Positions 664 through 51,788 of a stretch of 64,000 nucleotides of DNA are shown piece after piece. The notes beneath the pieces were generated by a model. The model worked only from the letters and a program-made list of their open reading frames with translations. It ran no database searches and was not told where the DNA came from. Positions within the stretch are counted from its first letter, which is position 1. Each line of letters begins with the position of its first letter. Both the position numbers and the translations under genes were made by a program. The stretch comes from a virus (Duplodnaviria > Caudoviricetes), in IMG/VR virus record IMGVR_UViG_3300032373_000006, positions 3,739 to 67,738 of that record; one strand, 5' to 3'.

Positions 664-1207
664 TGTCTGGCATCGTTTGCCAATCGTGATCTTTGATAGC
701 GTAGTACGTATCAACGATCTCCCTTGGGTAGTTCGCAGCATGACGAGGAATGAACTTCTCGACGTACCGCATTTGCGTTTCCACTGTACGATTGCCGAGC
801 ATGATCTGATCTTTGCACCAACAGTAGAACTCCAGCATGTCAAGACCGTGAAGCCATTCGTGCTCTTCTGGAGTTAAGAGCGGCTGGCTCTCAATGCCAA
901 AGACTTGAGTATTCAAGAAAGCTTCAATAGCCGCCTGACGATCTTTGTTGAGCAGCCCCATTGCCTTCGCAGGATGAGACATGTCAGATGTCAGGCGTTC
1001 TGGGAGGTCGTGCTCATGGATAGCCCAAATGAGACACGTACCTGCATCTGGATACAAGATCCGCAACATAGACAGCATGTTGTGTTGATGCATCCCGACA
1101 TAGTATGGGAGAGGAGCGGCGGTAGCATGAACCCGATGGACATGCGCCGCCTCGCGTGCAAACTTAATCCGATCAATCGGGTCGTCAATTTTATAAGGAT
1201 CTTTCAT
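647..1207 (-). CDS. HD-domain 5'-deoxynucleotidase (YfbR-like)
   Basis: Motifs R-x-H, VGMH, IHEHDLPERLTSD; ATGA overlap with upstream gene; nucleotide-metabolism context. Confidence 0.75.
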   Translation of the reverse strand: MKDPYKIDDPIDRIKFAREAAHVHRVHATAAPLPYYVGMHQHNMLSMLRILYPDAGTCLIWAIHEHDLPERLTSDMSHPAKAMGLLNKDRQAAIEAFLNTQVFGIESQPLLTPEEHEWLHGLDMLEFYCWCKDQIMLGNRTVETQMRYVEKFIPRHAANYPREIVDTYYAIKDHDWQTMPDMEDHG

Positions 1208-2229
1208 GACCGACGCTCCAGCCATTCCATACATGCGCGACGCCAGTCTGTCGCAGAGATGTTGTCCGCATGGTTGAGGGCATTCTCAGCATAATCACCA
1301 TTCTCACGGTCTTTCCACGCTTCCCACGCCTGATGCATCGGCACGGCCACCTTCTTGAAGAACGGGTCACGAAGCCCAATGATAGGCCCTTCATCCATGA
1401 ACATCTGCAGATCTTGGAACCAATCATTGATAGGAGTGTTCACGATAGGGAAGGATTCAACTTCCCCAAGCGAGTAAGGATCGTGCCCTGGAGTATGGCT
1501 GCGGATACCATCGTGCTTATCAAGTGTGGACTTGTAGCCATGGAAGTTGGTGGATATCTGGTGGTAGGAACCGAGTGGAACTCCGACCCATGCCGCCATG
1601 ACTTCTTGCAGCATTGAGAAATGAACCGCGTTGGCACCATAGGCACCCCAGATCATATCGTTGCTGCGATTGAACACTGTCATATCCAGCTTGCCGTATG
1701 GATTGATCCTGAACGTGGCGATCAAGTTGCATGGAAAATCTTTGCCATCCAGACCAAGGTCAGCTTCTGTGTCCCACATTTGCAGCACGATCCGGCGGTC
1801 ATCTTGGTTCTTAGTGAGCAACTCTGCGATTGTTGCAAGCTGATCAATGACACCGATTTCACGGCTGATGCCATCGTGAGTGTACTCACGTTCTTGAAAG
1901 TGGTTGCGCCAGCGATAGCCGTAGGCACCATGGAATGTGACACCGTCATCGCTGTAGTTCGCAATGTTTGAGGAGTAGGTCGCTGGGAACTCAACATCGT
2001 TGCGGCCAGAGATCATCCAAAGACTTTCCATGAAATGAAAGAACGGGTTGCAATCACGCTCTTCAAAGAACATCACCCGTTGGTCAGGATACATATACTC
2101 TGTGCTGACAGGCTCAGAGAAAACTTTGACTGGGCCGTTGCGAGAGTCTCTGTTGACCCCACGCTGATGCAGTGACTCCAGCCCAATGAGCATGGCCTCG
2201 CTGACATTTTTCGCTTTGATGAGAATCAT
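1204..2229 (-). CDS. Thymidylate synthase homologue, likely dUMP hydroxymethyltransferase
   Basis: Catalytic PC (DFPCN) and RSNDMIWGAYGANAVHFS, with Asn at the position that gives dUMP (not dCMP) specificity; neighbours are hypermodification genes. Confidence 0.85.
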   Translation of the reverse strand: MILIKAKNVSEAMLIGLESLHQRGVNRDSRNGPVKVFSEPVSTEYMYPDQRVMFFEERDCNPFFHFMESLWMISGRNDVEFPATYSSNIANYSDDGVTFHGAYGYRWRNHFQEREYTHDGISREIGVIDQLATIAELLTKNQDDRRIVLQMWDTEADLGLDGKDFPCNLIATFRINPYGKLDMTVFNRSNDMIWGAYGANAVHFSMLQEVMAAWVGVPLGSYHQISTNFHGYKSTLDKHDGIRSHTPGHDPYSLGEVESFPIVNTPINDWFQDLQMFMDEGPIIGLRDPFFKKVAVPMHQAWEAWKDRENGDYAENALNHADNISATDWRRACMEWLERRS

Positions 2230-3506
2230 ACAAGAACTCCATATTGTTCAAACATCAGATCTTCGTACTTGTTCCAAACATTTGGATCAACTTCCCCGAC
2301 CTGTGTTTCTGCGTTTCCATTTGCTAAGTCAATGACATGCTGTGCCACAACCTTGCGATCAAACATACCAAGGATATCATGAGCATTGTCACGATACTCG
2401 GTTGCCTCAACATCAGGCATGTTGCTTGCGCCGATAATGATATCAGCATAGTCTTGAGCATCACGCGCTTCGCCGAGGTCCACATAGTGTACGCCAGCCT
2501 TGAACAGTTCGTCGCCCATGCCGCGCCGTTGGGCTACTGGGATAGCGCCGCGAATCATGGCATCAACCGCAACCCTGTTCCAGTGACCACCGACTTTGCT
2601 GTACTTGGCAGACCAAGAAGGATCAACCAAGAGGCGAGACATCTCCAGCCAATCATCAACCTCATCGTTGGACCAGTAATCGTGATACTTCATTCCATTG
2701 TCGATTGCGACGTCAAAGAACTTGCGACCTTCAAAGCGGCTTTCACTGCTGTGGAAATATTGAGGTTTGCATTTGTCTTCGCTGGTCATGTACTGATATT
2801 CAATGCCGCGACCAGCAACCTCACGTAGCTCGCCAATAGCTTTCGGCGGCATGTATGCGATAGCTTCAACCAACTCATGGACATGCTTCCAAGCCTTGAA
2901 GGTTTGCATGTTCACGAAGCCATCGTTCTTGTCATCCCAGTCCATGATGGTACGAATAGGACGATACTGTGGGTTGACAACCAATGCGCGAGGAACTGGT
3001 ATGTGAGCAGCACCATTGAGAGCGCAGGCGTGGACGCAGGCCAGCCCAGACAGTTTGTCAGCGATGTGATAAAGGTGTGGAGCGCCGCTTTTGCAGTTGC
3101 CATCGTGAATGAAAGCGATCTGCTTCACATCTTCGTTGAGGTCGTAGAGTTCAGGCCACTTGTTATTGCCGAGATGGTTCTTGTTCTTTGGCACCACTGG
3201 AACAGTCCAGATAACCATGTCATAATCGTTAAGGATTTGTTTTGCGCCAACAAGACCAGCATTTGTTTTGTATGCGAGGCGATTGTTTGCTGGGAAATTC
3301 CAGCCCTTGCCTTGATCGTAGGGAATTCCACTTGGGCCGTATTCAAAATTTCCCGTTTTGTTTTGCTGACCCGCCCTGTCCGCGTAAACCATTTCAAATA
3401 GGGTGACAGAATGACCTAGTTCTTGGAGGCCTCCGATCAATTGCTCAGTGTGATTGATAATTCCACCGAGGTCCATGCAAGCATGGAAAGCAACACATAT
3501 CTTCAT
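2226..3506 (-). CDS. GT-B fold glycosyltransferase, candidate DNA-base glycosyltransferase
   Basis: N-terminal MKICVAFH..LGGIINHTEQLIGGLQELGHSV and C-terminal LLVDPS...RVAVDAMIRGAIPVA, as in GT4/group-1 enzymes; start at 3506 with GGAG SD. Confidence 0.75.
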   Translation of the reverse strand: MKICVAFHACMDLGGIINHTEQLIGGLQELGHSVTLFEMVYADRAGQQNKTGNFEYGPSGIPYDQGKGWNFPANNRLAYKTNAGLVGAKQILNDYDMVIWTVPVVPKNKNHLGNNKWPELYDLNEDVKQIAFIHDGNCKSGAPHLYHIADKLSGLACVHACALNGAAHIPVPRALVVNPQYRPIRTIMDWDDKNDGFVNMQTFKAWKHVHELVEAIAYMPPKAIGELREVAGRGIEYQYMTSEDKCKPQYFHSSESRFEGRKFFDVAIDNGMKYHDYWSNDEVDDWLEMSRLLVDPSWSAKYSKVGGHWNRVAVDAMIRGAIPVAQRRGMGDELFKAGVHYVDLGEARDAQDYADIIIGASNMPDVEATEYRDNAHDILGMFDRKVVAQHVIDLANGNAETQVGEVDPNVWNKYEDLMFEQYGVLV

Positions 3507-3534
3507 TATAAATCTCCAGTATGTAGCAAGCCCC

Positions 3535-3563
3535 ACCATATAGGCAGGGCTGGCAAAAGACAA
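3535..3563 (-). promoter_or_regulatory. sigma70-like promoter TTGTCT-N17-TATGGT upstream of the glycosyltransferase
   Basis: Matches the phage-wide consensus with exact 17-bp spacing. Confidence 0.6.
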
Positions 3564-3764
3564 CTATCGTTTTATCTTGTCAGTAAAAATAGTTGCCAAC
3601 ATAATGATCGGGATGAAACCAGCAAAAACAAAACCGAAGAAACAAACCATCAGACTGATCCGTGGCTTTTTCTTCAGCTTTACCTCACGAGAGTACCATT
3701 CAAGGAACATCATGAACCAAGCGAGCCAATAAAGTAGAACCCAGAATGCCCAACTAGGGAGCAT
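3564..3764 (-). CDS. Small membrane protein (66 aa, two hydrophobic segments)
   Basis: MLPSWAFWVLLYWLAWFMM...; the longer ORF-track version is a shadow of 3754..4662. Confidence 0.55.
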   Translation of the reverse strand: MLPSWAFWVLLYWLAWFMMFLEWYSREVKLKKKPRISLMVCFFGFVFAGFIPIIMLATIFTDKIKR

Positions 3765-4662
3765 GATACTTACTCCTCGGCTTTCCCTGCCCAAGACGAA
3801 CACGCTCGTACTTGTCGAACTCACAGAGACCGAACTGGATATCGGTAGGCGACAGGTGGAATTCGTGCCCAAACAAGAGCTCATGAATCTGGTACAGAGT
3901 TGAGATGATCTCAGTCGCTTGGTCATTCTTGAGAGGCTTGGCTGTCTCGTCACCAGACACCCTCGCAGCGCCACGCAAAGCTCCCGGACCGATAGGTGTC
4001 CAGATCTCCCAGTCGGCTGGGAACGTGAATGCATCTTCGTTGGGTTGCTCAGAGTAGTTTCGCCAGAAGCCTGTGTAGGTCGTGTCAAGAAGGACTTCCT
4101 TGGTCATGAACCCAGTGCCACCAAAGCCTTTGATGTTCTTCATCATGTATTGAGAAGTTTCAAACCACGATTGTGAGGTCTGAGAAATTCTCACGACTTC
4201 GGGAATATGCTTCTGTAGACCCTTGAGGAAGTGATCGACCACCACTTCTTGCTTCGGAGCAGAGATACCTTGGTTCGTAATGACGTAGGCTCCCGTGAAT
4301 ACCCTTTCCCTGTTAAAGAGTCTGTCGGCGGCTGTATCTTTGACGAACTCCCAGTGGTCTTCATCCATGTCTCCGAAGTTTGTCCACCCAATAGCATCGG
4401 CGAACTCGTATGTACCAAAGTAGCGATACGTGGCGCAGTTCATCAGGATACTGCGACGGTCGTCGTTGAAGTGTTCTTTGTAGAACATCTCTCGCAGACG
4501 TGTGCTGGTCTTATCGTGATGACGACGAACGTTGGTGAATTTATAAGTCCGAAGAATCTCGTCCTCGGTCCACGGAAAGAAATCGCCCGCCTCCTTCCGG
4601 AGACGGACGTTCTCGCGTTCTGTCAGATAGTCGAAGAACGCATTGGCACAAGCGAGCGACAT
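3754..4662 (-). CDS. aGPT-Pplase1 / 5-hmdU DNA kinase helical-domain family protein
   Basis: Signature ER..R..G..PWTEDEILRTYKFTNVRR.HDKT and HhH-like GFGGTGFM...; located in the T-modification cluster. Confidence 0.75.
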   Translation of the reverse strand: MSLACANAFFDYLTERENVRLRKEAGDFFPWTEDEILRTYKFTNVRRHHDKTSTRLREMFYKEHFNDDRRSILMNCATYRYFGTYEFADAIGWTNFGDMDEDHWEFVKDTAADRLFNRERVFTGAYVITNQGISAPKQEVVVDHFLKGLQKHIPEVVRISQTSQSWFETSQYMMKNIKGFGGTGFMTKEVLLDTTYTGFWRNYSEQPNEDAFTFPADWEIWTPIGPGALRGAARVSGDETAKPLKNDQATEIISTLYQIHELLFGHEFHLSPTDIQFGLCEFDKYERVRLGQGKPRSKYHAP

Positions 4663-5390
4663 TACGCCGCGTCCTGAGCAGCTTTCGCTTTTGCAGCCTT
4701 GGCAGCTTCTTTCTCTGCCTTGGCCTTCTCGCGCTCGGCGGCCTTTTCAGCTTTGGCCTTCTCGCGCTCAGCTTTCTTGGCTTCACGCTCTGCAGCCCGC
4801 TTCTCTTTGTCGGCTTCGCGTTGCTTTGCAGCTTCGATCTTCGCAACAAACGGGTCGACGCGGCCAGACTTCTCGTACCATGCAGCACGACGCTCGGCGT
4901 ATTCTGCATCGGTTGGGTCGGTGACCGATACGTAGCCTGCCTTCTCCCAGTTGTAGATGTCCCAAGGCAGAGTGCCTTCGCCTTCAATCGCATCGATGAT
5001 CATCATGCCATCTTTGTAATTGCCGGAACGGTGGTTGCGCTCTTCTTCGCCATCAAAAGGCTTGATGATTTTCATCACAGCAAACATCTTGCGAGTCGGA
5101 CGCTTTACATGCTGCGCCTCTGCAGGCTTCGCCAGCTTGCGTTCCTTGGGTTCGGCCTTTGGCTTCGCCTTTGGCTTTTCGCCAGAACCAGCAGCAGCCG
5201 AGGATTCGAATTTCTCGAGCGCCTTCATCGTCTGCGCAACAGCAGTATCGTGGTCTTTGAAAGTTTTGACTGCGGCAACTCCGAGGTCTTTTGCAACTTG
5301 GTTGCGAAGGTCAAGCAGATCAGCTTCTGACATGCCTTTGAGGTCGGCCAGTGCATAAGAGTGACCGCCGTATTCGATTTCTTTGTCCAT
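4662..5390 (-). CDS. Hypothetical protein with Lys/Ala/Glu-rich repetitive C-terminus
   Basis: Start MDKEI with GGAG SD; AEREKAKAEK repeated; TAATG overlap with downstream gene. Confidence 0.7.
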   Translation of the reverse strand: MDKEIEYGGHSYALADLKGMSEADLLDLRNQVAKDLGVAAVKTFKDHDTAVAQTMKALEKFESSAAAGSGEKPKAKPKAEPKERKLAKPAEAQHVKRPTRKMFAVMKIIKPFDGEEERNHRSGNYKDGMMIIDAIEGEGTLPWDIYNWEKAGYVSVTDPTDAEYAERRAAWYEKSGRVDPFVAKIEAAKQREADKEKRAAEREAKKAEREKAKAEKAAEREKAKAEKEAAKAAKAKAAQDAA

Positions 5391-5446
5391 GAGTATCTCC
5401 GATTTTCTACGATATATGTGGCTCACTACTTGCGGCCAGTGTTAGA

Positions 5447-20177: not shown

Positions 20178-21307
20178 ACCTCAATCTCCACGGTTCTGAA
20201 AGAAGCAGTTGTTATTCCACCAGTTTGATGTGTGATCGTCACAGAATCAGTGTCCAACCTTCTTTTACCCACCCACGATATACGCTTAATTGAGTCGGCT
20301 GCAATGTCTAAGTTTCCCGTAAAGTTAATTCCAATTGTTTCTGGGTCAACAATTACAAATGAATCGATCTGTCTCACATACCAAGTGCCATCTTTTGTTT
20401 GAACACCGATGTGATTTCTCTTATCGTCTCTGGCTAGAATTTGGTTGGCTTTAACATTGATGATTGATGCGATTGTTCCAGTGTTAATAGACACCAGATC
20501 AGTATCAAAGCTAGGTTGCCAGAAAACAGAAGCCCGACCAGATCGACTATACAAGAAATCCATCATCTCATCGAATTCTTCTTCAGTAGAGTTGAAGAAG
20601 CTCATGTTCCGTGCAGTTCTAACATCTGTTAGATCAACAGTAGTTGACACTAAGCCAGTCTGAGAATCGAATACTTTCATTTCGAGAAACGAGTCTTCTT
20701 CGACAGTAGCCTTGCCAGTTCGCAAGGTTTCAAACTCTCTCAGAAATAGATCATCGGAAAGATATTGTGGCAGAGCGGAGGGAACTTTTGAATAGTTGTC
20801 AATGATTTTAAAGTCAAGATCGTAAACCGCATCTAGACCAGAACCAACTTTCCTGAAACCAGTTGGAAAATAAGCAGTTCGGATTGGCATGACCCAAGCA
20901 TCAGGCATGGCCGTCGTGGTCTCAACGAAAGTAATTGAACCAGCAGATACCGTGTCAATCGTCATGAGTTGCCAGTCAGTATCACTCTGCCAAATTATAG
21001 CGAATTGACCATAATTGTATCTGGTCGTATCGAAAGAAATGCTAGTCCCCACCCCGACAGCTCCAATTCGAAAAGCTTCTGTCCAAATTGGGAAATACAA
21101 ATTAGTTCTAGCCCCAGCGGACAAGATATCAAGAGCGGTTGATTTGATATCATCTCTAGCTGGAAACGAACACTTGAAAATGCGTCTTGGGTTGTTTCTC
21201 AATCTTAGAGTATCTTCTGTTCCGTTGTTAGATTTCGCCAGATCAGTCAGATATTCTATTGTCTCAGATACTGGTGCCTGAGGTTGATATGGAAATACAA
21301 TGCTCAT
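20174..21307 (-). CDS. Distal tail (Dit)-like protein
   Basis: Immediately follows the tape measure gene; FLYSRSGRASVFWQPS. Confidence 0.65.
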   Translation of the reverse strand: MSIVFPYQPQAPVSETIEYLTDLAKSNNGTEDTLRLRNNPRRIFKCSFPARDDIKSTALDILSAGARTNLYFPIWTEAFRIGAVGVGTSISFDTTRYNYGQFAIIWQSDTDWQLMTIDTVSAGSITFVETTTAMPDAWVMPIRTAYFPTGFRKVGSGLDAVYDLDFKIIDNYSKVPSALPQYLSDDLFLREFETLRTGKATVEEDSFLEMKVFDSQTGLVSTTVDLTDVRTARNMSFFNSTEEEFDEMMDFLYSRSGRASVFWQPSFDTDLVSINTGTIASIINVKANQILARDDKRNHIGVQTKDGTWYVRQIDSFVIVDPETIGINFTGNLDIAADSIKRISWVGKRRLDTDSVTITHQTGGITTASFRTVEIEV

Positions 21308-24300
21308 TGTCCACTATTCTGCAATATACCTGAGGCTGTGATCTTGTTGATCAGCACGGTTTCACCTTCTGGTGTATCGAGGAATTGACCCACCAAGCTC
21401 ATGTCCATCACGTTGATGACTTTCTGGTTTACGATTGGAGCAGGTTGATCGCCCCCGCCCATGCCGTTCCGCAGATTGTTTCGTTGTGCAGCTTGTTGCT
21501 GAGGTGTCAGGACATCGACACGCTCGTCAGGCCGCTTGGCAAATTCTACGATTTGCGTGTCAGTTGATCCAGGACCAGTAGGTGTGAAAGATCCACCACC
21601 TGCTAGTTGTGGGAGACTTGGTTGAGGCCCAAAGGAGGCTCCGCCAGCCGCTCCTGGAAATACGAAACCAAGCGCACGAAGGAACAACTGTTTCAAGATC
21701 AGTTTGGCGATGTCTGAGAAGATCTGATTGAACAGCGCCTTCATGTTGAGCTTACCAGTGTTGGCGAACTCAACCAAGGCATCAGCCGCACTACCAGCCG
21801 CGCCGACTACAATATCACCAAGAGCTGACCCCATGTCGGAAACAGACTCTGTGGCTTTCATGATAGAGGCTTGGAAGCTACCGCTGAATGTTTCTGAAGC
21901 TTCCAATGTTGCAATCTTGGTTTCACGTAAACGAGAGTTGTACTGATCGAGACTAATAGCCCCTTGCTCATATAGTTGATTGAGAGCCTCTTGAGTTAGA
22001 CGCATGGTCTCCATTGGGCCATTGATCTCTTCAAGCACCTGACCTTGAATCTCACTAATTGCAAGAAGTTCTGTCGCCGAATTTACCAACTCACGCTCAG
22101 TGTCAGTAAGATCACGCTTGATAGCGCGTTCCACTGACAGAATGTTGTTCAGCTTCTCTTTCTCAAGGCCATACAGTTTGGCGAGTTCTATCTGCTTGCC
22201 GAGGTCGACCAGTTCTTGGGCGAATGTACGGCCCTTTCCTTTCTTACCCTGATCGCTGTTATCAACATCATTGATTAAACTGTTTGTGACGAAACCCTGT
22301 GAGAAAGCTTCATCTTCTCCGCGAGCAGTAGCATTGCGACGAGCTCTGTCTACGATATCAGATGTCAATGAGTCTACGACATTAGCAAGTCCTCCTGCTC
22401 CGCCTACGAAGTCTTGACTGAACCCTTCTTGGAAAGCCGCCGCCGCTTCTGCACCAGTTGCACTCGCTGCGCCAGTGACGGTAGCTTTGAACCGATCTAG
22501 GTTGATCGCGTCTTCTGAGAACAGGTTTGCGAATGGGTTCTCTTGACCAACCAACTCTGCAGCAGAGCCAAGGAATGTCAACACACTTTGGAAAGCGTTG
22601 ATGATACCCTGAACACCACGTTCTACGATTTCAATCAGACCGTTAATAGCGATAGCAGCAAAGTCTTTGAAAGCAGGACCGAGGTTTTGCCAGACAGCAA
22701 TGATCGCGCGATACCCACCAACGAAAAGCCCAATGATGGAGTTGATACTAGTTTTCATAATCCCGAGAATGAACATTACTGATGATACCGCAATATCGCG
22801 AATACCAGTGAAGACCGGAGATACACGCTCAAACAGAGGTTCAAAGAAACCAGCGATTTTAGTAGCAACCCTTGACACTGATTCTACGATAACCTGAAAA
22901 GCAGCGACCCCGAGATCTTTCAGCGTTATGAATTCACTACCAAGCACTTTGATGCGGTCACCGAAAGTAATCAATAGCACGATCGCCGTGGTGATTGCGG
23001 TAATGACAAAGCCGATAGGGTTTGCAGCGACTGCTACGGTGAACGCACGGACCGCATTTGCGGCCAGCCTAGCGCCACCAGCCAGCGTGGGGTATGTAGC
23101 CGCCAGCCTAGCCGCCACGGTGGTCTGAGCAGCCTGTGCCGCAGTGGTGCGGCCTATTGCGCGGGTCAGACTTGCCTCAGCCACTGCATTTGCGTTTGTT
23201 GCTATCGCCAAACGTGTCCGGCCAGCCGCCGCCGTGATGAAACGACCTGTCTGAGCATCTCTTGCTCTTCCATTTGCAGTGAGCGCAACTGTCTCAGCCA
23301 GTGTCGCAGCAGTATTCCTCGCTTGAGCAGCCGCAGTAACAAGAGCACGGCCAGCGCGACGTTGCTCTAACAGAATCGTAGCACCGATAACCTTGCCTGC
23401 TCTCTGCAGAGCATTGACATATGTGAGAACACGTTGAACAGCACGAACACCCCAAACAAGAGACAAGGCAATCGCAGCAGTAGCAGCGACTCTGGCAATA
23501 GTCCCTAGGTTTTCAGAAATTGTGATGATAGCATTTGCGACAGCTTCACTCGCACCAGTCACATCGTCAAATACATCAATGAACTCAAGCAAGTTGGTCT
23601 TTGCTACATTGAACGCCTGCTCAATGGTTGGGTTCGTTTGATCAAACAAATCATTAACTCTTTGTTGAGAAGCTTGGATCGCACGGAATACAATGTCCGC
23701 AGTCAGTTTACCTTCTCGGCCCAAAGAACGCAGTGAACCACGAGTGACTTCACCGAATTGTTGGGTCGTGTTCAGATAATCAACGATGATATCAGCAACC
23801 GCTGGCAACTGCTCGAGAACAGAACGAAGTTCGTCACCAGACAGGCGGTCGGATGCAATACCCTGCCCAAGCTGGATGAGCGCAGCATTGGCTTCTCTAG
23901 CTGACGCACCAGATAGAATGGCCGCTTTCTGTAGAGTCTCTGTGACATCAAGGATTTGGCGTTGCCCAACACCGAGGTTCCGTGCTGACAGCGCAATTCG
24001 GTTGTAGACATCAGCAGTTGCTTCGAAATCAGATCGTGCGTTCCTTGCACTCTGGAACAATTGTGTCTGAACTGCTTCAAGCTGAGCCGTGCTGTCTGTC
24101 GTTAATTTGAGACGGTTCTCTACGTTTGTCAACGCATCAGCATAGCGGGCAAAACCACTGATTGCCCCTGCTCCACCGATAACGAACAATGCTCGCTTGA
24201 GTAAGAAGATTCCTCGTGTGGCTCGATCAGCGGAAACACCGATATCATCGATCCGACGCTTGACAACACGACCACCACGTTCTACAAATCTGACGGTGAC

Positions 24301-24315
24301 TGTTTCAGTGACCAT
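21304..24315 (-). CDS. Tape measure protein
   Basis: 1003 aa, Ala-rich; tape-measure domain LIQLGQGIASDRLSGDELRSVLEQLP. Confidence 0.92.
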   Translation of the reverse strand: MVTETVTVRFVERGGRVVKRRIDDIGVSADRATRGIFLLKRALFVIGGAGAISGFARYADALTNVENRLKLTTDSTAQLEAVQTQLFQSARNARSDFEATADVYNRIALSARNLGVGQRQILDVTETLQKAAILSGASAREANAALIQLGQGIASDRLSGDELRSVLEQLPAVADIIVDYLNTTQQFGEVTRGSLRSLGREGKLTADIVFRAIQASQQRVNDLFDQTNPTIEQAFNVAKTNLLEFIDVFDDVTGASEAVANAIITISENLGTIARVAATAAIALSLVWGVRAVQRVLTYVNALQRAGKVIGATILLEQRRAGRALVTAAAQARNTAATLAETVALTANGRARDAQTGRFITAAAGRTRLAIATNANAVAEASLTRAIGRTTAAQAAQTTVAARLAATYPTLAGGARLAANAVRAFTVAVAANPIGFVITAITTAIVLLITFGDRIKVLGSEFITLKDLGVAAFQVIVESVSRVATKIAGFFEPLFERVSPVFTGIRDIAVSSVMFILGIMKTSINSIIGLFVGGYRAIIAVWQNLGPAFKDFAAIAINGLIEIVERGVQGIINAFQSVLTFLGSAAELVGQENPFANLFSEDAINLDRFKATVTGAASATGAEAAAAFQEGFSQDFVGGAGGLANVVDSLTSDIVDRARRNATARGEDEAFSQGFVTNSLINDVDNSDQGKKGKGRTFAQELVDLGKQIELAKLYGLEKEKLNNILSVERAIKRDLTDTERELVNSATELLAISEIQGQVLEEINGPMETMRLTQEALNQLYEQGAISLDQYNSRLRETKIATLEASETFSGSFQASIMKATESVSDMGSALGDIVVGAAGSAADALVEFANTGKLNMKALFNQIFSDIAKLILKQLFLRALGFVFPGAAGGASFGPQPSLPQLAGGGSFTPTGPGSTDTQIVEFAKRPDERVDVLTPQQQAAQRNNLRNGMGGGDQPAPIVNQKVINVMDMSLVGQFLDTPEGETVLINKITASGILQNSGQ

Positions 24316-38920: not shown

Positions 38921-40438
38921 TCAATGTGTCCCAGATGTTCCGCCAGATGTTGCTCGAGTGCCAGCAAAACGCACGAAATACCGAGTTTCGTCTGCGATGT
39001 GGTCCTCTGCGTCCGTATCGACGTCGTCTGGGTTTTTCTCATCTCGAGGAATGACTGGAATTCCCTCAATGAAGCTGACGCAGTTAGAAAACACGAAAAG
39101 AGCCGATTTTTCACGCGGGAAAATGGCGATCACGTTGCCGTCGGCATCTTTCTTCTTGTTTGGGCCAGCCTGCGACATCATCTGTCTCATCTGGTTCCAG
39201 CCAGTCACGCGGCTTCCAGGACGTTTATCAGCGGCGATCCACTGAATTCCTGGATATTTGTTGCCATCGTCAAGTCTCACCTTGACCTTCATGTCCGTAG
39301 CGATGCAATTTCCGTTCTCAGCCGCAAAAATCTGCGAATCAGCGACTCCAGGACGAACTCTGCACCAATTTTCTCCCATAGTGCGCCAGCCCCACTCCAA
39401 TTCGCGTTTTACGATGCCTTCTGCGATATCTGTAGCTAACATGTCCAAACCTTGGTTCGGTTTGTTCGGTTGGCAGCCATACCACTCTCTTACGCGAAAA
39501 ATATCGCCTTTTATTGTAGAACGCCACTTGTTAGGACCTATCTGGACGTCCTCGCCGTTGCTAATGGCCCACCAGCCCACGCTGAACGGCTTAGAGGCTC
39601 CCCAGTCAAAGCTCCTCGTAATCCTCCAGTTGTGTGGGATAGCAAATGGCTGCACGACGTTATATTTCGGGTCCCAGACATCGTCGAACATGCCACCGGA
39701 CATGATATTCCAGTCGCCTTCCAACCAAGCCTTCTTTTCAGCCTCATTTCGCGCAGATGCAGCGATTTTCTGCTTATATTCTGGGTCAGCTTCCAAGAGC
39801 GCGATATTTTCGTCAATATGACTGTGAATGCTCAGGCGAGCAGGCTCTTTCATGCCCTCTTCGTCGATCAGATCACGACGCACAATCATATTCATGCTGT
39901 TTGGCTTGAAACGGTGCTTCACCCAGTTGTGTCCCGGACCATATGGGTTGGTCGTGGCGCGAAGCATACGAGGCATACCCTTCGTAGAACTCCGACAGCA
40001 TGACATCATCCGCTTGTAGCCCTCATCCGTGGGCCAGTTGCAGAGTTCCTCCCAGCCGATCCATGGATACTCGTGTCCGTGATAGTTCCAGTAGTCGTCA
40101 GCCTTCATGAACTGTCGGAGAAGCAGTTTCTCCCCATCGGGCCATGTCCAACTCGAGTCTGACTGATTGAACTTCGCCTGAGGCCAAATCTGCGGAAACC
40201 ATTTCTGCGTCTTCGATATAACGTCGCCAAGCTGCTTGTAAGTCTGTCGGAATAGAATGCCCTTCCACGCCGACTTGTGGCCCTTTCCGACGTGATTCCC
40301 GAATGACATGAGCAGACAGTCGGTCTTCCCTCCGCCGCGTGTTCCCTCAAATAGGACTTCGAATATGGGCGTGGAAGACAAGAATGCTTCCTGAGATCCC
40401 GGCATCGGCTTCCAGATTACATTATCAGGGAACTTCAT
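38921..40438 (-). CDS. terL: Terminase large subunit
   Basis: Walker A EGTRGGGKT, Walker B IGWEE, TTNP, nuclease FDWG and EDHIADETRY. Confidence 0.93.
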   Translation of the reverse strand: MKFPDNVIWKPMPGSQEAFLSSTPIFEVLFEGTRGGGKTDCLLMSFGNHVGKGHKSAWKGILFRQTYKQLGDVISKTQKWFPQIWPQAKFNQSDSSWTWPDGEKLLLRQFMKADDYWNYHGHEYPWIGWEELCNWPTDEGYKRMMSCCRSSTKGMPRMLRATTNPYGPGHNWVKHRFKPNSMNMIVRRDLIDEEGMKEPARLSIHSHIDENIALLEADPEYKQKIAASARNEAEKKAWLEGDWNIMSGGMFDDVWDPKYNVVQPFAIPHNWRITRSFDWGASKPFSVGWWAISNGEDVQIGPNKWRSTIKGDIFRVREWYGCQPNKPNQGLDMLATDIAEGIVKRELEWGWRTMGENWCRVRPGVADSQIFAAENGNCIATDMKVKVRLDDGNKYPGIQWIAADKRPGSRVTGWNQMRQMMSQAGPNKKKDADGNVIAIFPREKSALFVFSNCVSFIEGIPVIPRDEKNPDDVDTDAEDHIADETRYFVRFAGTRATSGGTSGTH

Positions 40439-40978: not shown

Positions 40979-41128
40979 CTACGAGGGTAGCGGTTCGTCA
41001 TAGCACCCGCAAGCCTCAAATTCAGGCGATTTGTCATGGATCGCCATGTAATCCCAGTCAGGACACAGGTGGACTCGGTTCTTCCCCTGATTCTTGTAGT
41101 ATTGGGCTAGGACTTCCTCGTGATCCAT
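40979..41128 (-). CDS. Small Cys-containing protein (49 aa)
   Basis: Manual translation MDHEEVLAQYYKNQGKNRVHLCPDWDYMAIHDKSPEFEACGC...; not in ORF track. Confidence 0.55.
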   Translation of the reverse strand: MDHEEVLAQYYKNQGKNRVHLCPDWDYMAIHDKSPEFEACGCYDEPLPS

Positions 41129-41363
41129 GTTCTCTTTCCACTGAATCATCTGTGAACCTCAATTGAGTGACATCAACCCAGCCGATCGCCTTCTTAGCGC
41201 GAACATAATGGCCTGCGTAATTCGCAGCTGATATCACGTTGTTTTCATGATCCACCCCGAGCAGACAAAAACTACCTCCTGGAGTTTCTGCTATAACGAT
41301 CCAGTTCCCTGGATACCGTCCGCCTTTTCGCGGGAATACTTTTCCGATCATCGATTTAGACAT
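41058..41363 (-). CDS. Hypothetical protein
   Basis: 101-aa ORF; 3' end overlaps the next small gene. Confidence 0.55.
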   Translation of the reverse strand: MSKSMIGKVFPRKGGRYPGNWIVIAETPGGSFCLLGVDHENNVISAANYAGHYVRAKKAIGWVDVTQLRFTDDSVEREHGSRGSPSPILQESGEEPSPPVS

Positions 41364-41485
41364 TGCTTAATCCACGTATGTGCCTCAGCAGGTGTCATGA
41401 AAGTCTTGCTGGAATACCGACCCTTATCGTCCCAGTAATGAGCGCGAACCCCTTGTCCAAGAGCGGTGATCTTTGGTTCTTTCAT
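41348..41485 (-). CDS. Small hypothetical protein (45 aa)
   Basis: MKEPKITALGQG... with GGAG SD; manual translation. Confidence 0.5.
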   Translation of the reverse strand: MKEPKITALGQGVRAHYWDDKGRYSSKTFMTPAEAHTWIKQCLNR

Positions 41486-41677
41486 TGTAGGCTCCGATTG
41501 CTATTTGGTAAGCGTAGCAGCTTGGGCTTCTCACGAAAAGCCTTATGTGTCTCTCGTTATTTTATTTCTCGTATATAGGATGCTAATGGTGTCTTGATGG
41601 CTGAAAGAGGGGGTGGGGGGAGTGCGCCCTTACCCCGCCAAGACTGGAAGCCGTTGGTGGGGCGGGGTTGCGTTGGC

Positions 41678-41782
41678 CTAGGGCGTTACACTTGCAAGTT
41701 GTGTAAGCACCTGTGCAACCAAGGGTGCAGCTAGTGCATAAATAATTACAACCGCAAGTAGTGGGGGTAAAATGCGTACCAT
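41678..41782 (-). CDS. Hydrophobic 34-aa peptide lacking Asp/Glu
   Basis: MVRILPPLLAVVIIYALAAPLVAQVLTQLASVTP with AAGGT SD; inside the GA/TC-free island. Confidence 0.5.
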   Translation of the reverse strand: MVRILPPLLAVVIIYALAAPLVAQVLTQLASVTP

Positions 41783-41812
41783 GGGGTAAACCTTTGTGTT
41801 GTGTGTGGGGGT

Positions 41813-41837
41813 GGCAGGGGCAACCGTTGCCCCTGCC
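41813..41837 (-). terminator. 12-bp perfect inverted repeat after the 124-aa gene
   Basis: GGCAGGGGCAAC-C-GTTGCCCCTGCC. Confidence 0.65.
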
Positions 41838-41846
41838 TTGGTTGTG

Positions 41847-42221
41847 TTAGCCCTTGGCAGGCACAGCTACCAAGTAGCCCTGTGCAGGGCGTAGGGGCCA
41901 CTGCGCGTGGGCGTTGCAGTTGGCGTTGGGCTTGGCGGCTGTGCCAAAGCCAGCGCTTGGCACCTTGCCCCCGCCCTGTTGCCAAGCGGCCAGCCCTGTA
42001 GCCAGTGCGCTTGCATACTGCGCTTGTGTAAAGCCTTGCTTGTGCTGGGCGGTTAGCGCCGTTGCCACCTTGTGCATGTAGCAGCGTATGCTATTGCCCG
42101 TTGCGTGCTTGGCGGGCCAAGGCCCCATTGTGTAGCGGGTTGCGCCCTGCGCGGCTGGTGCTGGTGCTGGTGCAGCCTTTTTAGCTGCGGTTGCCTTTGG
42201 TGCTGTTTTTGCGTTTGCCAT
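41847..42221 (-). CDS. Basic Ala/Lys-rich 124-aa protein with no Asp or Glu (putative early protein)
   Basis: AAGGT SD, own promoter and terminator; entirely within the GA/TC-free island. Confidence 0.75.
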   Translation of the reverse strand: MANAKTAPKATAAKKAAPAPAPAAQGATRYTMGPWPAKHATGNSIRCYMHKVATALTAQHKQGFTQAQYASALATGLAAWQQGGGKVPSAGFGTAAKPNANCNAHAQWPLRPAQGYLVAVPAKG

Positions 42222-42263
42222 TGTGTTGTTACCTTGTGTTGCGGCCCTTGCGTTATTGCTTGG

Positions 42264-42292
42264 CCTATACCTAGCCTAAAGGCAAAAGCCAA
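42264..42292 (-). promoter_or_regulatory. Promoter TTGGCT-N17-TATAGG (TC-free variant of the phage consensus)
   Basis: 17-bp spacing; upstream of 42221. Confidence 0.55.
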
Positions 42293-42360
42293 CCGACACA
42301 ACACCTTTTTTACATTTAATGACATTTAATTTAATGATTGTATTTTGGACACAGTGATGC

Positions 42361-43070
42361 AGAAAAGACACGAGTGGCCAGAAGAAGAAGAAGATGAGGA
42401 GCTCTCGGAGGCGACAGAAGAAGAGACAGACTCGGATTAAGTCACTCGGTCAAAATCGGTCGGTCGGTCAATCTTTCACTCGGTCTTCTTTTTCGTCGGT
42501 CGGGAAGATAAAGAAGATGGGCCTTCTATTTGATGAGGGAGCCGACGCACCCCACGATTGTCGGCTCCCTCTCAGCATCATATCAGGCAGATCGAGGTCA
42601 GGCAACCCACCCAATAACGACTCAACCCTAGTGGCGGAGGGGAGGACGCTGATTCCGTGAGAACGATGCACCCTGCGCGATAGCAGGTCTGCAGACTGTG
42701 ATAGTACCACCGAGGGTGAACGCCCAAGTGAGTAGATCAACCTCGTGGCGGAGGACGGACTTGTTGTCGGAGAGGGGACCTGTGAACGTGGGCTTCACCG
42801 CGCCGAATACTGCGCCTGCTGCGTTGAGAACGATGTTTGAGCTTTTCATGGACTTACCTTTCATACGTGGGTTACTACATACACGCTACCATCAGGAATT
42901 TACGGAAACAAGCATCCGTTATCTTCCTTTGTCTTCTTTATCCTCGTTTATCCTTATCCAGATCCAAGGAAGAAGAAATAGAAGAAGATGCCTTATGAGA
43001 TGTAGAGGAAGATACATTATTAGACGACGACCGACTCGGACAAACTCACTCGGTCAAAATCCATCGTCGG
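42361..43070. repeat. GA/TC-rich low-complexity zone with TCACTCGGTC repeats
   Basis: 16-mer TCACTCGGTCAAAATC at 42442-42457 and 43046-43061; 10-mer again at 42476-42485; GAA and CGGT runs. Confidence 0.85.
42628..42849 (-). CDS. Small hypothetical protein (73 aa)
   Basis: AAGGT SD; promoter TTGTTT-N17-TAGCGT at 42883-42911. Confidence 0.55.
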   Translation of the reverse strand: MKSSNIVLNAAGAVFGAVKPTFTGPLSDNKSVLRHEVDLLTWAFTLGGTITVCRPAIAQGASFSRNQRPPLRH

Positions 43071-43071
43071 T

Positions 43072-43686
43072 CTAATCTGTCTGGTCCTCAATTTCTTCAG
43101 GCATTGGAGAAACATCCTTCGCCTTTGCGAATCTTTTCTCCCAGTCATCGATGGATGCCATCTCAGCAGGAGCAACCAGAACACCGCCAGAGTGATTGAC
43201 TTTCATCTCTTGCTTTTCACGGTAGCCTTCGTCGTGCTTCTTCAGCTCCATCTCGATGAGGCGGATTGGGTAGACCGTTTCTTCGGAGACGAGGTTGCCG
43301 TTACGATCGTAGCTCTTCTTAATCGTCCCGTTGAATACCAAGTCTTGGTGATGCCCAATAAGCTTCTCCTGATACTCTTGCTCTGCCATCAGCATTGCCT
43401 CGGCGAATTCCTCGTCTGCTGCCATATGTTCACGCACACATTGCGGGGAAACACCCACGGAGGCTGCGCTCTCTCCCATCCGCCCCCACTTCCGATACTC
43501 ATCCAGGAATCTGCCTTTTTCTGCATCCCCGAACTTTATCCGGTCCATCTTTATCCGACGTCGCCACGTTCCGTCTTCATCTTGTTCTTCAATGACCACC
43601 ACTTTTGATCCACGGGAGAGAAGCGAGGTAGGTCGTTTCCGCACTTGGGCGTTGTCGTAGGTATCTTGGCTGTAATCATCTGGCAT
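43072..43686 (-). CDS. terS: Terminase small subunit
   Basis: HTH-like FLDEYRKWGRMGESAASVGVSPQCV...DEEFAEA and EMKVNHSGGVLV tail. Confidence 0.75.
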   Translation of the reverse strand: MPDDYSQDTYDNAQVRKRPTSLLSRGSKVVVIEEQDEDGTWRRRIKMDRIKFGDAEKGRFLDEYRKWGRMGESAASVGVSPQCVREHMAADEEFAEAMLMAEQEYQEKLIGHHQDLVFNGTIKKSYDRNGNLVSEETVYPIRLIEMELKKHDEGYREKQEMKVNHSGGVLVAPAEMASIDDWEKRFAKAKDVSPMPEEIEDQTD

Positions 43687-50977: not shown

Positions 50978-51294
50978 TATGCCTCCAACACCATATCTTC
51001 TGCCCAGTCCTCGTAATCGAACATCTCAGGGATCCATGTTTCCAAGATGAGAATTGTTTCCAATTGCTGACGTTTGCCAAGATCGGGGCGGAACAGAACA
51101 CCCACACGGAACACGAGAGTACCTTCCATAAGAGGCTGCTCAAGTTTTGATCCAGGTAGATGCTCACCGAGATCTGGTCCGGTATAGTATCCCTTGGGCG
51201 TGAAAGGACTTCCATTACCCATATAATTTGTTGGGTTCCAGAAGCCGATCCGCAATCCAGCGGTAACTCTCATACTGTCAATGGCTGAGCCCAT
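50977..51294 (-). CDS. Hypothetical protein
   Basis: ORF in chain; start uncertain. Confidence 0.5.
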   Translation of the reverse strand: MGSAIDSMRVTAGLRIGFWNPTNYMGNGSPFTPKGYYTGPDLGEHLPGSKLEQPLMEGTLVFRVGVLFRPDLGKRQQLETILILETWIPEMFDYEDWAEDMVLEA

Positions 51295-51788
51295 TCAGGC
51301 CACCCTCTGTTCTTGTAGGTCGCCGCACGTTTGTCAGTCGCCCAGCGTTCTTGCAGGTATGCTCTGTAAGACTCTGGTACTGGCAGGTCTGAGAAATCCA
51401 AACCAAGACCTTCATGACGAGCGCTATTTTGAAACGGTAGCAAAGGACCATCTGGAATGCAACCGATAAATCTCCCAATGTAAGGTGTCCGCTCTGCGCT
51501 TCCATGTTTAGTTCCGTAGCGAACCTGCCATTCGGCGGAGCAGGCGTAGGCATAGGTAAGGCACCACTGCCAATTTGACCGCGTAGCCCCCACCCAGAGC
51601 GTCACTGGATGCGCCTTGTGGGTTGGCTTGCACCCTAACCCCACACCATACTCCATGGTGTCCGGTGCGTGTCTGTGTACGGCGGTAGACAGCAGTTGGT
51701 TGGCTTCACGCAGCGCGGTCCCGATACGCTTGTCGTCAAGCAACTGCGGAGCCAGCGTTGGGTCAGTGTCAAGGATAAACAGGTTCAT
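51270..51788 (-). CDS. Pyrimidine-dimer DNA glycosylase / endonuclease V-like protein
   Basis: MNLFILD.DP...DKRI...EANQLLSTA...KPTHKAHPVTLWV. Confidence 0.75.
   Translation of the reverse strand: MNLFILDTDPTLAPQLLDDKRIGTALREANQLLSTAVHRHAPDTMEYGVGLGCKPTHKAHPVTLWVGATRSNWQWCLTYAYACSAEWQVRYGTKHGSAERTPYIGRFIGCIPDGPLLPFQNSARHEGLGLDFSDLPVPESYRAYLQERWATDKRAATYKNRGWPEWAQPLTV

Follow-up and report, generated by a model that had tools for sequence, protein, structure and literature searches.

Why does a phage keep one short block of its genome free of a dinucleotide that is common in the rest of it? The question is raised by a contig of the class Caudoviricetes (IMG/VR record IMGVR_UViG_3300032373_000006; 67,738 bp, designated genome G000), of which bases 3739–67738, a stretch of 64,000 nucleotides, form the window analyzed here. 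A first-pass annotation had pointed to an island at 41648–42295 without GA or TC, which are the same dinucleotide on opposite strands. A dinucleotide gap scan with a composition-based expectation bore this out: no site lies in these 648 bp (the flanking occurrences are at 41647 and 42295), whereas approximately 75–94 would be expected and the runner-up GA/TC-free run in the window is only 74 bp. A gap of comparable length is not seen for any other strand-symmetric dinucleotide class in the window. GA and TC together occur 9,269 times in the window (0.145 per position), and the chance of such an island is P ~1e-44 at the window frequency and P ~1e-35 with its own base composition (75 sites expected). 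The observed-to-expected (O/E) ratios of GA/TC in all other genes of the window are 0.77–1.42 (mean 1.18 ± 0.11). A depletion in highly expressed genes was tested for and not found. The island is rich in CC, and its G+C content (57–65%) is above that of the flanks. Since independent metagenomic contigs have the island at the corresponding site, it is not an assembly artefact, an objection that the annotation itself had raised.

Searches of the island region by blastn against GenBank phages gave zero matches, and scans of the same region for Rfam families and tRNAs gave no hits. Two GA/TC-poor patches were seen elsewhere in the contig, where the mean is 21.7 sites per 150 bp. One, at G000 3528–3677 (~60–210 bp before the window start; locus L181), has 4 sites in 150 bp and corresponds to the Ala-rich C-terminal part of a 229-amino acid (aa) protein adjoining the DNA polymerase. 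The other, at 23053–23202 of the window, has 5 sites in 150 bp and is inside a 1003-aa open reading frame (ORF; 21304–24315) of the tail-gene region. The gene at 51270–51788 (minus strand), whose GA/TC ratio (0.83) is the third lowest of all genes in the window, gave a weak match to PF03013 (pyrimidine-dimer DNA glycosylase) with an E-value of 7e-4, below the cut-off.

The island holds a small cassette, all features of which are on the minus strand. A 124-aa basic protein without Asp or Glu is encoded at 41847–42221 and a 34-aa hydrophobic, membrane-type peptide at 41678–41782, both by ORF reading. The GA-free Shine-Dalgarno sequence AAGGT (42231–42235) is nine nucleotides before the ATG and is conserved in the alignment. 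A GC-rich hairpin (41813–41837; 11-bp stem, 3-nt loop, −22.8 kcal/mol) lies between the two ORFs, without a U-tail on the gene strand, and a second GC-rich hairpin is located at the island edge. The predicted promoter TTGGCT-17-TATAGG (42264–42292), also inside the island, is a weak sigma-70-like site read from the sequence, and an automated promoter scan placed it below the sigma-70 criteria of the tool. In the relative L002, the analogous site TTGCAC-17-CATATT is likewise within the island. Of the complete transcription unit that had been proposed, both ORFs, the Shine-Dalgarno sequence and the hairpin (of 11 rather than 12 bp) were thus recovered, while the promoter stayed below those criteria. 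The additional statement that most other promoters of the phage follow T(T/A)GTC(T/A) did not hold up, as a crude scan gave 9 matches versus 5.3 ± 2.0 in shuffled sequences. The reported absence of Asp and Glu and the restriction of Ser to AGY codons are correct for the 124-aa ORF, in which AGC is used exclusively. The sole Ile of this protein is encoded by the rare ATA, whereas relatives use ATC.

The contributions of protein sequence and DNA sequence to the gap were separated by synonymous recoding, with the two protein sequences fixed and synonymous codons drawn by the phage's own usage. In 20,000 draws, the recoded ORFs contained 22.3 ± 3.5 and 10.6 ± 2.4 sites, and a site-free version never came up. 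A new GA or TC would arise from 33% of all single-base changes that the island could undergo, yet its homologues in metagenomic contigs, despite 119–260 differences in the alignment (82–56% identity), still hold only 0–3 GA/TC. Taken together, the recoding and the diverged relatives indicate selection rather than chance or composition: the island is kept GA/TC-free at the nucleotide level. The absence spans both strands, all frames, the second unrelated ORF, and non-coding DNA. The depletion goes beyond composition and codon usage and is conserved in diverged relatives, as motif avoidance would have it, and no consistent neighbouring bases that would indicate a longer motif were found around the few tolerated TC sites. 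In agreement with the earlier suggestion that a DNA constraint shapes the protein composition, the recoding demonstrates DNA-level selection beyond what the proteins account for.

The suggested check of whether the island keeps its position while its sequence diverges had a positive outcome in relatives whose synteny was shown by tblastx. The O/E ratio of GA/TC in the cassette at 24 loci is 0.00–0.07 in 11, 0.17–0.55 in 8, and 0.56–0.76 in 5; depletion of a further dinucleotide class was not found at any of these loci, including those of family members without an island. The 11 full islands measure 620–790 bp and share one layout: the start is 75–130 nt 5′ of the ATG, followed by an ORF for a predicted winged-helix protein (the 124-aa protein in the window), a spacer of ~60 nt, and a small hydrophobic ORF. 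The latter is present downstream in 10 of the 11 loci and diverges in sequence, with a length of 26–34 aa in most loci and 61 aa in one. The island ends 200–225 nt past the first stop codon in all full-island loci, and GA/TC returns to normal density immediately beyond either border. The depletion extends ~300–360 nt upstream of the ATG in L010, L011, and L016. The predicted promoters of the relatives also fall within the islands, which favours a DNA-level rather than an RNA-level constraint. On the family tree, seven of the full islands group in one well-supported clade and the other four are scattered, and at least 2–4 state changes (2–4 separate branches) are therefore required. The avoided word is identical in phages of 43–59% G+C from many samples, and GA/TC is enriched 1.16–1.35 times in the rest of each genome.

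The 124-aa protein was modelled with a disordered Ala/Lys/Pro-rich tail (residues 1–24) followed by a winged-helix-like domain. Its composition (27% Ala, 13 Lys + Arg, no acidic residues) includes a basic tail. AlphaFold2 prediction on nine homologues gave a predicted local distance difference test (pLDDT) score of 80, with >89 in the core (residues 30–120). The top matches in a VIA-align comparison with the PDB are winged-helix domains, i.e. JetA, MukF, Polycomblike, SAMD1, ORC, and linker histone H1.8 (Z = 4.4–6.7; root-mean-square deviation ~3 Å over 60–80 residues). Foldseek against the PDB gave nothing at E <0.001, no match was found in Pfam, PHROG, or NCBIfam, and a PDB sequence profile search and the ESM Atlas yielded nothing informative. 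From the modelled fold, the 13 Lys + Arg, the lack of acidic residues, and the basic tail, the protein is predicted to be a winged-helix, linker-histone-like DNA-binding protein. It resembles linker histone H1 in the predicted globular domain and the disordered Ala/Lys/Pro-rich basic tail, but here the tail is N-terminal, there is no sequence similarity, and the Z scores are only 4.4–6.7. A profile search of 1.8 billion cluster representatives collected 31 clusters (50% identity) of the family. Asp and Glu are both zero in most of them, and a few have up to 23; acidic residues are thus compatible with the fold and have been lost in most lineages.

To what does the avoided word belong? A candidate answer is provided by the genes at 1204–4662 (minus strand), for which thymine-hypermodification enzymes had been claimed; a thymidylate-synthase-like protein, a GT-B-like protein, and the helical domain of a 5-hydroxymethyldeoxyuridine (5-hmdU) DNA kinase were indeed found there. 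The protein at 1204–2229 matches PF00303 (E-value 2e-19) and is far under the NCBIfam cut-offs for true thymidylate synthase; its sequence suggests a hydroxymethylase activity, making it a candidate deoxyuridine monophosphate hydroxymethylase. The protein at 3754–4662 contains the 5-hmdU DNA kinase helical domain (PF18723, E-value 5e-30) and is 28% identical to its homologue in phage M6. No P-loop kinase domain was recognised alongside the helical domain. The adjoining 254-aa protein (p254; 4662–5426, minus strand) is conserved in all genomes with the island protein family and gave no match in family searches; it possibly represents the catalytic part of the kinase. Between the thymidylate-synthase-like and kinase genes sits a gene for a 445-aa protein (p445; 2226–3563, minus strand) with a GT-B-like fold, which is a candidate DNA-base glycosyltransferase. 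Its best Foldseek matches are structures of the T4 alpha-glucosyltransferase (E-value 4e-5) for a model with a pLDDT of only 60, and a sequence-family search gave no match. The p445 model suggests a glycosylated hydroxymethyluracil-type base, and no description of such a base was found for these phages. A Pplase-type transferase (amino-acid:DNA transferase, aGPT-Pplase) was not matched, the GT-B-like p445 being present instead, and DpdA/TGT (PF01702) had no match in the complete 67.7-kb genome, while 14 of 14 control genomes matched.

Related kinases occur in 418 IMG/VR contigs. The genes for p254, the kinase helical domain, p445, and the thymidylate-synthase-like protein are all present in 10 of 10 complete or near-complete genomes with the winged-helix family, and the same 10 have the gene order terminase small subunit (TerS), cassette, terminase large subunit (TerL), although these genomes are related and the counts are not independent events. 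Among 12 kinase-bearing genomes without the family, p445 was found in only two (G018 and G013). G018, a different phage type with no recognisable homologues of the window's terminase genes, has its own 475-bp GA/TC-free island (40995–41470; locus L157 995–1470), which encodes an unrelated 108-aa acid-free protein with no detectable homology to the winged-helix family. G013 has a 400-bp zone between TerS and TerL with 4 GA/TC sites versus 66 expected.

The sequence context of the modification was addressed with palindromes, on the premise that if a step carries a protective mark, restriction-type palindromes containing that step need not be avoided. In 10 pooled genomes, the 18 palindromes of 4 or 6 bases that contain GA/TC have a median O/E of 0.95, compared with 0.67 for the other 62 (p = 9e-6). 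With G+C-matched palindromes, the values are 0.95 with GA/TC and 0.43 without (p = 3e-6), and the 18 most avoided palindromes are all without GA/TC. Grouping the palindromes of these genomes by CA/TG or AG/CT had no effect, and grouping by AC/GT gave a weak opposite lean (p = 0.04). The sparing of GA/TC palindromes is visible genome by genome; palindrome O/E values inside the islands are similar to those of the genomes and provide no extra discrimination. In phage M6 (locus L009, 1–50000), by contrast, CA/TG palindromes are spared (0.87 vs 0.49) and GA/TC palindromes are avoided (O/E 0.11 vs 0.82). According to published work, the M6 kinase prefers TG, as does phage SH-Ab 15599 (PMC6449724, PMC13458397). 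The M6 result agrees with this preference, and palindrome statistics alone thus seem to report the modification context. Genomes whose kinase is at least 45% identical to that of the window mostly show GA/TC sparing, whereas those at 42% or less show none. The supposition that T in 5′-TC is modified thereby gains indirect support, as the sparing marks GA/TC as the protected step. The alternative that host methylation or restriction at sites such as GATC and GANTC is being avoided fits poorly, since palindromes with GA/TC are the ones that are not avoided.

On balance, we favour the explanation that T followed by C is hypermodified throughout the genome and that the cassette is written to escape the marking. 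This reading of the modification context draws on the spared palindromes, the co-occurring modification genes, and the purge of the island. Thymine would be incorporated as 5-hmdU, phosphorylated by the 5-hmdU DNA kinase, and decorated by the glycosyltransferase-like p445, and a cassette without TC on either strand would be the one stretch of virion DNA without the bulky mark. The benefit would most likely be that, regardless of the condition of the remaining genome, the cassette is treated as ordinary DNA, to be read or left untouched. For example, unmodified host RNA polymerase could transcribe it from a fully modified incoming genome, it could be invisible to modification-dependent nucleases, or it could still be expressed when modified DNA is silenced or coated. 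The constraint on two unrelated proteins, the borders that follow the unit, and the inclusion of the promoter suggest that it is the readability or invisibility of the whole unit that matters. We infer from sequence that the mark is on the T of TC, that the island is unmarked, and what advantage this may bring; the reason why the cassette must stay unmarked is speculation. A more specific version, which we consider doubtful, is that the cassette is the sole host-readable part of a glycosyl-thymine virion DNA and that the winged-helix protein reads or unlocks modified DNA, licensing or later shutting down transcription of the rest. Given the repeat region and the terminase neighbours, the cassette may also have a role in packaging or first entry.

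Several observations weigh against escape from a TC-directed mark. The depletion is graded within the family, which a simple all-or-none requirement does not predict. In some members the purge is one-sided: the coding strand of L020 has 0 GA and 8 TC, and that of the acid-rich member L012 (106–639; 23 Asp + Glu) has 27 GA and 0 TC, and the one-strand purge in L012 is left unexplained by a two-strand model. No gene was found that separates full-island from partial-island genomes. The palindrome signature is also present in G014, G015, and G023, all of which lack p445, and G014 has the signature and no island; a TC-directed mark alone therefore does not produce an island. The low confidence of the p445 model counts on the same side, as does phage M6, a proven thymine hypermodifier with no dinucleotide-free island. 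In addition, natural 5-substituted uracils had only moderate in vitro effects on T7 RNA polymerase (PMC11550810).

Other causes for the purge have to be set against these difficulties. Enzymes with a TC preference exist, such as T4 endonuclease IV (TCA), DddA and APOBEC (TC), and DarT (TNTC), and the cassette might avoid an attack on TC/GA by a host ADP-ribosyltransferase, deaminase, or nuclease, or by the phage's own host-DNA-degrading nuclease, and so stay expressible. One conserved reader would explain the same avoided word in phages of 43–59% G+C, and the unit is a complete expression cassette with sharp borders. We nevertheless regard an attacking enzyme as unlikely, in view of the GA/TC enrichment in the rest of each genome and the non-avoided GA/TC palindromes, which fit protection of that step. 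Moreover, shielding 1% of the genome from a DNA-damaging enzyme would not save the phage, and a search for a candidate enzyme found none. The island could also be a packaging signal, i.e. an unmarked landing pad or boundary beside pac/cos repeats in which the genes merely happen to lie. It invariably lies in the TerS–TerL interval and immediately follows a GA/TC-dense repeat region; G013 and G015, in which the winged-helix family was not detected, have depleted zones in this position as well. However, the borders follow the two-gene cassette within tens of nucleotides at all loci, the family is acid-free in the L011 contig, where the sampled neighbours differ and include no terminase, the island of G018 occurs without homologous terminase genes, and G014 packages its DNA without any island, so that a packaging signal appears quite improbable.

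An RNA-level constraint, under which a transcript without GA and UC would escape an endoribonuclease (a host toxin or a phage shut-off RNase), has a precedent in ACA-less mRNAs, which resist MazF. The island corresponds approximately to one transcription unit, and some members are purged of one word only on the coding strand. On the other hand, GA and UC are reverse complements, so that one reader of duplex DNA suffices where an RNase would need two causes. The island takes in the predicted −35 and −10 boxes and 20–55 nt upstream of the likely start, and the upstream depletion in L010, L011, and L016 extends much farther from the ATG. With the genome-wide palindrome signature being a DNA-level effect on the same step and no RNase gene found, we consider this explanation very improbable. 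The remaining alternative is that the gap is a by-product of selection on the protein (acid-free, Ala-rich, and basic) or of a foreign origin or composition. The basic character and 27% Ala of the 124-aa protein and the G+C content of 57–65% above the flanks would agree with it. It is close to refuted, and in our view extremely improbable, as recoding with the proteins fixed never reached zero, TC is missing from every reading frame and also from the non-coding DNA and the second, unrelated ORF, and members with many Asp and Glu show that the fold does not require an acid-free sequence. Two other candidates were set aside on base composition: C-to-T hypermutation by a TC deaminase, as the island is more G+C-rich than its flanks, and Rho avoidance, as it is rich in CC.

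Context-dependent thymine hypermodification derived from 5-hmdU is known from phages M6, ViI, PhiW-14, PaMx11, and SH-Ab 15599, in which the modification is partial and prefers TG over TC (PMC5889632, PMC8989533, PMC6449724, PMC13458397). The present phage shares with the M6/ViI-type systems the thymidylate-synthase-like candidate hydroxymethylase and the 5-hmdU DNA kinase helical domain. It differs in its kinase, which shares just 28% identity with the M6 enzyme, and in the inferred context of TC rather than TG, with the palindrome test recovering CA/TG for M6 and GA/TC for this clade. In place of the transferase, it has a GT-B-like protein to which no known enzyme is related in sequence. Modification-free islands have not been reported for the M6/ViI-type phages, and M6 has none. 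A literature search returned papers on context-specific hypermodification, none of which describes modification-free islands.

The island also resembles restriction-site avoidance, in which selection removes a short word read by an enzyme, and these genomes do avoid palindromes in that way. Here, however, a dinucleotide is purged wholly from one unit of 650 bp, and two amino acids are given up for it; elsewhere the word is over-represented, and the avoided reader is probably an enzyme of the phage itself. On this reading, the island would be a case of motif avoidance with the phage's own DNA chemistry as the target. Single-protein production with MazF-resistant ACA-less mRNAs is similar in that a whole gene lacks a short word so that it alone can be expressed; that system acts on RNA and one strand, whereas the island is purged on both strands, including promoter DNA that is apparently not transcribed. 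The T5 first-step-transfer DNA, the T7 gene 0.3 region, and the SPO1 terminal redundancy are comparable as small self-promoted cassettes for small non-structural proteins, and like these terminal regions the island cassette is possibly beside a packaging site. No dinucleotide purge is known for the first-entering regions of T5, T7, or SPO1. If the island gates expression epigenetically, it would be a mirror image of CpG-island logic.

Should the escape from a TC-directed mark be confirmed, sequence alone would reveal the context of an unknown DNA hypermodification through spared palindromes and a purged dinucleotide, and the DNA chemistry of a phage could dictate the amino acid alphabet of a protein. 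It would also provide a candidate new thymine modification by a glycosyltransferase-like enzyme and a small predicted DNA-binding protein whose function is tied to the modification. From the palindrome and island signatures, one could predict the restriction enzymes and modification-dependent defences that a phage resists, and the cassette is a natural test bed for the effects of bulky base modifications on transcription.

The island is located between the genes of TerS (43072–43686, minus strand; phrog_4044, E-value 3e-21) and TerL (38921–40438, minus strand; phrog_979). From TerS to the island extends a GA/TC-dense, apparently non-coding repeat region (42340–43081) that contains (GAA)n tracts, three copies of TCACTCGGTC, and 53-nt direct repeats. 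The latter (42425–42477 and 43029–43081) are 75% identical and flank ~600 bp. Comparable iterons are present in relatives, e.g. GACCGAGT and three copies of CCGCCACATTTCCG, and GA/TC-dense, repeat-rich DNA is found ahead of the cassette in all relatives examined. It could serve as a pac/cos site, as an origin, or in regulation. A 27-aa ORF with 50% Asp + Glu (MQKRHEWPEEEEDEEL...) at 42357–42440 (plus strand) is divergent from the acid-free gene. A similar ORF is found only in L007, and the corresponding sequence is not an ORF in most relatives. Judging from these sequences, it is probably not a conserved gene, and the GA-rich tract is therefore probably non-coding repeat DNA. The ends of G000 (1–143 and 67596–67738) overlap by 143 bp with one mismatch, which is most likely a circular assembly overlap. 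In the same genome, L181 398–1141 (minus strand) encodes an FkbM-type methyltransferase (PF05050, E-value 1e-6) adjoining the family A DNA polymerase.

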